This document shows, piece after piece, positions 41,920 to 42,520 of a stretch of DNA of 64,000 bases. Each line of letters starts with the position of its first letter. The first letter of the stretch is position 1. The notes below the pieces were generated by a model that saw only the letters and a program-made list of their open reading frames with translations, ran no database searches and was not told where the DNA came from. The stretch is taken from the NCBI RefSeq assembly GCF_056712565.1, contig NZ_CM160072.1. One strand, 5' to 3'. The position numbers and the translations under genes were made by a program.

Positions 41920-42520
41920 ATGATTAAGGTGTATGGCGTACCCGGCTGGGGCTCTACAATCAGTGAGCTGATGCTAACACTGGCTGATATTCCTTATCAG
42001 TTCGTTGATGTCAGTGGTTTTGACCACGAGGGAACTTCACGCGATTTATTAAAAACCCTGAATCCGTTGTGTCAGGTTCCGACACTGGCGCTGTAAAAAT
42101 AACGAGATTATGACGGAGACAGCGGCGATTGCATTGATGGTTCTCGATCGTCGCCCGGACCTTGCGCCACCTCTTGGGCGCGCCGAACGTCAACAGTTTC
42201 AACGGCTATTGGTCTGGCTGGTTGCTAATGTCTATCCAACGTTCACTTTCGCCGATTACCCTAAGCGTTGGGCATCTGACGCACCTGTAATTGAATATCG
42301 CAAATCGCTTTATATCTGGCTGAATTCGCAATTGACTGCTGAACCGTATGTGTTTGGAGAGCAACTAACGCTGGTGGACTGTTATCTCTGCACCATGCGC
42401 ACATGGGGACCGGGACACGAATGGTTTCAGGATAATGCCCCGAATATTAATGCGATTGCTGATGCTGTATGTCAGATACCGAAATTACAAGAAGTATTAA
42501 AAAGGAATGTCATTATTTAA
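41920..42520 (+). pseudogene. yncG: glutathione S-transferase-like gene split by in-frame stops/frameshift
   Basis: 58-codon ORF MIKVYGVPGWGSTISELMLTLADIPYQFVDVSGFDHEG...QVPTLAL* (GST N-terminal domain) is followed immediately by a second ORF (42110..42520) encoding the GST C-terminal domain in another frame. Confidence 0.7.

Follow-up and report, generated by a model that had tools for sequence, protein, structure and literature searches.

The E. coli gene yncG (b1454) belongs to the GST family, and in the window, i.e., the whole stretch of 64,000 nucleotides analyzed here, the corresponding DNA is occupied by two open reading frames (ORFs) instead of one. This raises the question of whether the gene has decayed, whether its interruption is an error of sequencing or assembly, or whether the two frames are still used, either joined by recoding or as separate halves. 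In the ORF list, ORF1 (58 codons plus TAA) occupies positions 41920..42096 of the plus strand, and ORF2 (136 codons, +1 frame) positions 42110..42520 of the same strand. ORF1 starts with ATG, bases 42094-42102 read TAA AAA TAA, and the ATG of ORF2 (position 42110) lies in a different frame, 14 nt past the last base of the first stop. A 58-codon ORF that ends in TAA AAA TAA, with a restart in another frame 14 nt further on, had been described in an earlier note on this DNA, and both its coordinates and its details were borne out. ORF1 accounts for β1-α1-β2-α2-β3 of a thioredoxin-like fold, up to the QVPTLAL sequence, and ORF2 for β4-α3 of the N-domain (MTETAAI and onwards) together with the helical C-domain.

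Identity of the locus and the lesions in it

When the two ORFs were compared with protein families, neither reached the Pfam gathering thresholds by which a functional GST protein was judged. The match of ORF1 to GST_N was below threshold (E 2e-4), and its GST_N_2 score was 22.3 bits against a cut-off of 25; likewise, ORF2 matched GST_C below threshold (E 8e-4), scored 20.0 bits with GST_C_2 (cut-off 24.9) and was also sub-threshold with GST_C_3, although it spans positions 63-197 of the 201 positions of the NCBIfam GstA model. The GST_N_2 threshold was passed, with ~34 bits, by the intact YncG of K-12 and by the conceptually repaired protein of the window. Since the scores of the halves are sub-threshold, the protein evidence alone is weak, and the identity of the locus was therefore set by DNA comparison. 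Positions 41880-42560 were 100% identical to E. coli ATCC 11775 (= DSM 30083), in which the matching feature, EAS44_RS13285, is 601 bp long and is annotated by PGAP as 'glutathione S-transferase family protein, frameshifted'. Over the whole window the identity to the ATCC 11775 record was 99.97%, the differences being 6 SNPs and a single indel of 11 bp, all outside yncG. End-to-end alignment with the intact, 618-bp yncG of K-12 placed the 601-bp locus at 41920..42520 (plus strand), with ~92% DNA identity over the full length of the gene. In both the window and K-12, yncG is divergent from ansP, and the flanking genes ansP, yncE and pqqU are the same. By position and by full-length nucleotide homology, the locus is the yncG ortholog.

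The lesions were defined by alignment to three intact alleles with conserved ansP-yncG synteny, those of K-12, AR_0119 and AHM8C160RI. Lesion 1 (42094..42103, plus strand) consists of the insertion of a T at 42094 and of two G>A substitutions, at 42095 and 42101, so that the intact CTG GAA AAT GAC GAG (LENDE, codons 58-62) has become CTG TAA AAA TAA CGA G. An equivalent reading of the same change is a G>T substitution, one extra A and a G>A substitution. In either case one additional base and two substitutions lie inside 10 nt, and they create both an in-frame TAA and a +1 change of frame. This agrees with the proposal, also made from the sequence, that a single-nucleotide indel plus substitutions inactivated yncG. 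The homologous frame restarts at 42095, straight after the inserted base, and not at the ATG of ORF2; only the frame is lost at lesion 1. A search of both strands of the 64-kb window for a template copy of GCTGTAAAAATAACGAG (up to 3 mismatches) or of its core (up to 1 mismatch) returned a single, unrelated one-mismatch match to the core, at 18534, and a templated or gene-conversion origin of the triple change is thus unsupported. In strain 23CRST032 (L008:2798-3323), a 36-bp in-frame tandem duplication, in which LENDEIMTETAA is present twice and which is flanked by a short GGCG direct repeat, affects the same codons as lesion 1 (compare window positions 42087-42122). This overlap may be a coincidence or may point to a local mutational hotspot.

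The earlier note had also assigned the two pieces to a GST N-type and a C-type half, divided at the domain border. The assignment of the halves stands, but the division is elsewhere. In intact YncG, the Pfam GST_N match covers residues 2-71, corresponding to profile positions 3-71 of 76, and in ORF1 it covers residues 2-56, i.e., profile positions 3-57, so that the break falls at GST_N position 57 of 76. On alignment to the beta-class GST structures 1pmt and 1a0f, ORF1 ends right after the strand formed by QVPTLAL (QVP(V/A)L in the structures), which we take to be β3 with its cis-proline, and the MTETAAI sequence at the start of ORF2 aligns with the "TEGVAI" segment, which presumably holds the Glu that binds the γ-glutamyl group of glutathione. 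The break is therefore located inside the thioredoxin fold, between β3 and β4, where it divides the glutathione site. The frame ends at codon 59, after β3, and no single polypeptide contains a complete thioredoxin-like N-domain (β-α-β-α-β-β-α) followed by an all-helical C-domain.

A further lesion, absent from the earlier note, was revealed by the allele alignments. Lesion 2, whose junction is at 42285..42288 (plus strand), is an 18-bp in-frame deletion that removes TGAACAGTTAAAGAAGAG, with TG microhomology at its flanks, and the two lesions account for the length of the locus (618 + 1 - 18 = 601). The residues lost, 123-128, are EQLKKN in the intact alleles and EQLKKS in the B2-type alleles that retain them. 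In 1a0f and 1pmt they align with the segment after the "DTPE" motif, which we take to be the start of a long C-domain helix (fifth helix region). Being in frame, the 18-bp deletion is by itself no proof of decay.

Sequencing error, recoding and separate halves

The extra base of lesion 1 adjoins a run of five A residues, which is a typical site of indel errors on some sequencing platforms, and a homopolymer or assembly error in a gene that is in truth continuous and intact was the case that the earlier note had named as refuting its reading. To measure how common lesion 1 is, 5426 complete E. coli genomes were searched at ≥99% identity with a 111-nt probe that had the junction in its middle. 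The junction was found in 451 of them, including ATCC 11775, Nissle 1917 and CFT073, and in 377 of the 451 the match was exact over all 111 nt; the other ~4140 yncG-bearing genomes carry the one-base-shorter, intact-type junction. A frame-restored probe (the window junction minus the T at 42094) had no exact match among the 5426 genomes, and its best matches (99.1%) all contained the T. The same junction has thus been read in 451 independently sequenced complete genomes, never in a frame-restored version, and PGAP likewise calls the gene frameshifted. Furthermore, the TAA follows directly after CTG, so that a change in the length of the A-run cannot reopen the frame, and the additional base is accompanied by two substitutions and, in sub-lineages, by nested secondary lesions. 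We consider the chance of a sequencing or assembly error to be practically nil. A +1 insertion and a TAA, defined against three intact alleles and reproduced in 451 genomes, make the locus a bacterial pseudogene in the sense used by PGAP.

A real lesion could still be bypassed. Full-length YncG might be restored under some conditions by a programmed +1 ribosomal frameshift like that of prfB, with which the window allele shares a 0-frame stop exactly at the shift site, and skipping of the T at 42094 would indeed yield a continuous protein (...LAL-KNNEIMTET...). The remaining features of prfB, i.e., a slippery codon, a Shine-Dalgarno-like stimulator and a conserved downstream frame, are however absent. 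CUG-U is not slippery, since tRNA-Leu is unable to re-pair on UGU and CUG-UAA therefore offers no +1 re-pairing, and no Shine-Dalgarno-like motif is present upstream, in CCGACACTGGCG. Moreover, the downstream frame is unprotected, with a TAG at codon 92 in 83 genomes and the 6-codon deletion in 295, and every intact allele encodes this stretch without any shift. An Rfam search of positions 41000-43500 detected no structured element in yncG, its sole match being a sub-threshold JUMPstart downstream. Restoration by phase variation fares no better: slippage would require a tract longer than A5, the length of the tract is invariant (377 of the 451 junctions being exact), no frame-restoring variant was found, and the TAA is in frame at any tract length. 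Recoding or phase variation is thus extremely improbable. The other way in which the locus could retain a function is as a split gene, with ORF1 and/or ORF2 translated separately and ribosomes reinitiating on ORF2 at its ATG (42110). The open frame of ORF2 is long and begins, 14 nt past the stop, with a Met codon that is conserved in the intact alleles, and a weak GAG lies five bases upstream of this ATG. The cut between β3 and β4, however, leaves neither piece as a complete domain and divides the glutathione site, and ORF2 is not conserved as a unit: it is interrupted by the TAG in 83 genomes and is six residues shorter in 295, so that 378 of the 451 are affected. A promoter consensus scan of positions 41650-43100 placed no promoter-like site upstream of ORF2 (42110), and the total of sites was no higher than in shuffled sequence. 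Low-level reinitiation at ORF2 is conceivable, with a product that would be devoid of the N-terminal part of the glutathione site, and functional halves seem to us very unlikely.

History of the allele and recurrent loss of yncG

The reading that we prefer is that the locus is a decaying pseudogene, passed on by vertical descent, of yncG, which is a non-essential member of the GST superfamily and has a beta-class-like fold, and we place the probability of this reading at about 0.93. A cluster of mutations at codons 59-61 introduced the in-frame TAA and the downstream +1 shift in an ancestor of a large group of strains that includes ATCC 11775, Nissle 1917, CFT073 and APEC O18. Translation from the yncG start would then end after 58 residues, and the product would lack β4-α3 and the whole helical domain; the Glu-Thr element predicted to be lost aligns with the Glu-Gly of the glutathione-binding region of beta-class GSTs. 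With the constraint removed, further lesions would have accumulated by sub-lineage, namely the 18-bp deletion in the lineage of the window and a CAG>TAG change in that of Nissle 1917. No functional YncG would be made, leaving the locus inert, and the loss would be tolerated, yncG probably being dispensable and repeatedly lost. Read from its DNA, the window allele is thus predicted to give no functional YncG product.

The distribution of the lesions among the genomes is consistent with this order of events. Lesion 1 is the only lesion in strains A4, FDAARGOS_1253 and N64. The junction of the 18-bp deletion was found at ≥99% identity in 295 genomes, including the window and APEC O18, and ~153 B2-type alleles, CFT073 among them, retain the 18 bp; 83 genomes have the stop of the Nissle type, a CAG>TAG change in codon 92. 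Both of these secondary lesions are nested within the lesion-1 set, and they are mutually exclusive in the sampled alleles. In addition, 16 codons are common to all six sampled alleles of the lesion-1 type and differ from all four sampled non-B2 alleles. The simplest history is that lesion 1 arose once and that sub-lineages were then damaged further, independently of one another. Nissle 1917, CFT073 and APEC O18 are, we assume, members of phylogroup B2. ATCC 11775 is also assigned to this phylogroup (PMC4334874). The yncG lesion in the window is hence old and lineage-wide, and not specific to one strain.

We then compared the codons that vary within the two types of allele. Among the intact alleles, the ratio of codons with amino-acid changes to those with silent changes only was 6:21, and within the broken alleles it was 4:3 (nonsense included), plus a deletion. 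This contrast is in the expected direction, and, resting on seven polymorphic codons in the broken alleles, it is underpowered and speaks only weakly for relaxed selection. On the branch that leads to the lesion-1-type allele, which is unrooted, the fixed differences were 6 non-synonymous and 10 synonymous. Because these differences are mostly silent, most of the divergence arose under constraint, either before the inactivation or on the side of the unrooted branch away from this allele.

Loss of yncG was not confined to this lineage. An 11-bp deletion (GMF065 type) was found in 144 genomes, and a ~128-bp deletion together with a 1-bp deletion in 97 (ST2747 and 23CRST032 types), where the companion of the ~128-bp deletion is either a 14-bp deletion (ST2747 type) or the 36-bp tandem duplication (23CRST032 type). 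In strain E3 the loss of yncG is associated with IS3, and yncG DNA was undetected in 810 of the 5426 genomes. Intact yncG is thus missing in at least ~28% of complete E. coli genomes, a lower bound, since the figure counts only the lesion types described here and complete absence. Such recurrent, independent loss across the species indicates that yncG is dispensable. The loss could also have been repeatedly selected rather than merely tolerated, in which case the triple change at codons 59-61 could have been one complex event that swept the B2 lineage. In favor of this are the recurrence itself, with at least four independent lesion types besides complete absence, and the fact that the largest group is the B2 lineage, rich in extraintestinal pathogens. 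If selection had been at work, possession of yncG would lower fitness in some host niches (an 'anti-fitness' gene), and its reported effect on peroxide tolerance might be the reason. The present data, however, show recurrence of loss and not selection, and we regard selected loss as unlikely.

Under the preferred reading, decay of a dispensable gene, the yncG of the window is an ordinary pseudogene and one that is already known, since RefSeq/PGAP marks the gene as 'frameshifted'. The lineage of the E. coli type strain and several hundred related genomes, Nissle 1917 and CFT073 included, would then be without a functional YncG, as far as can be predicted from their DNA. This absence is relevant to work on this poorly characterized GST homologue or on peroxide tolerance, and it has little wider import. 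The lesions also provide a simple lineage marker, in which lesion 1 comes first and is followed by one of two further changes, the 18-bp deletion or the TAG stop.

The adjoining island and the relatives of YncG

The earlier note had placed yncG next to an accessory island, and the gene does directly adjoin one. Downstream of yncG and before yddH, there are a PAAR gene, vgrG, an M35 peptidase gene, a hypothetical gene and an ISAs1 remnant. The interval is a known variable region, described as Rhs locus 6 (PMC2935791) and as GR11 "yncG..yddH" (PMC12928451), and in K-12 the same position is occupied by yncH and an rhsE remnant instead of the PAAR-vgrG cluster. In the window, the segment 43061-47906 forms a small accessory T6SS cluster, which also holds a further small hypothetical gene. 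Its VgrG has 801 aa and a long C-terminal extension, and the end of vgrG is overlapped by the M35 peptidase gene, whose product is a likely effector; the cargo after vgrG varies, being DUF4123 in Nissle and DUF2169 in AHM8C160RI. Insertion of the island was considered as a cause of the inactivation and was rejected, since AHM8C160RI carries an identical PAAR protein (WP_001127493.1) and vgrG beside an intact yncG. The last codons of yncG (42510-42520) read NVII-TAA in alleles with the PAAR-vgrG or the ISEc1/RHS arrangement and NEII-TGA in those with yncH-rhsE. They thus track the downstream cluster. The PAAR and the yncH arrangement cease to be homologous within these codons, and the recombination boundary of the variable Rhs/VgrG region therefore falls in the final ~12 nt of the gene.

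An exact ops consensus, GGCGGTAGCGT, was found at 42748-42758 (plus strand), 228 nt past the yncG stop and ~300 nt upstream of the PAAR-vgrG genes. It sits in a JUMPstart-like match (42722-42759) that is sub-threshold in Rfam (19.8 vs 35 bits, E 0.44). Among the loci compared, each one with a vgrG/rhs cluster has the 11-mer conserved at an unchanged relative position, including that of K-12, where it lies upstream of the rhsE remnant, and it is absent where IS elements have replaced the region. This suggests RfaH-dependent antitermination of the auxiliary T6SS cluster downstream of yncG. An RfaH-bound T6SS locus, 'c1882-c1889', has been reported in CFT073 (PMC9765446), and the ops-preceded cluster probably corresponds to it.

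Several other gene remnants are present in the window, at positions taken from the PGAP annotation of the near-identical ATCC 11775 record. These are a fragment of a GntR-family regulator at the position of mcbR/yncC (~36392-36559), a partial hicB (~26997-27233), in which the sole indel between the window and the record is located (11 bp, at 27073), a fragment of a methyl-accepting chemotaxis protein (~13168-13611), a Hok/Gef fragment (~13056-13157) and the ISAs1 fragment (~47467-47610). Both mcbR and yncG are thus degraded in the window; both were also hits in one over-expression screen for H2O2 resistance, and over-expression of yncG in MG1655 raised the MIC of H2O2 (PMC8228696).

Among solved structures, the closest to intact YncG are E. 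coli GstA (1a0f) and Proteus mirabilis GST B1-1 (1pmt), with E values of 1e-11 to 1e-13 over nearly the full length. Intact YncG covers positions 2-199 of the 201 positions of the NCBIfam GstA model, but with the GstA equivalog NF007831 it scored 62.7 bits against a cut-off of 198. When YncG is aligned to 1a0f, a Gly of its PGWGST sequence falls opposite the Cys in the N-terminal PGACS motif of that chain, which we take to be the beta-class Cys10. By its equivalog score and by this Cys, even the intact protein is a relative of the beta-class GSTs and not a member of the class. According to the account given in PMC8228696 of an earlier study (Kanai 2006), YncG had no GST activity in a cell-free assay.

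Compared with the yncG of K-12 (b1454), which is one continuous frame of 205 aa, the window allele has one additional nucleotide, a TAA at codon 59 and the 18-bp deletion, and its last three codons differ as well (NVII* against NEII*); the promoter-proximal sequence is the same in both. The allele of Nissle 1917 (ECOLIN_RS32835) shares lesion 1 and, like the counterpart of the window allele, is annotated as a frameshifted yncG; it differs in that it is without the 18-bp deletion, has a G6S substitution and carries the CAG>TAG change that places a further internal stop at codon 92. The alleles of GMF065, ST2747 and 23CRST032 are likewise annotated as frameshifted pseudogenes and lie beside the variable Rhs/VgrG region, but their lesions are unrelated to those of the window.
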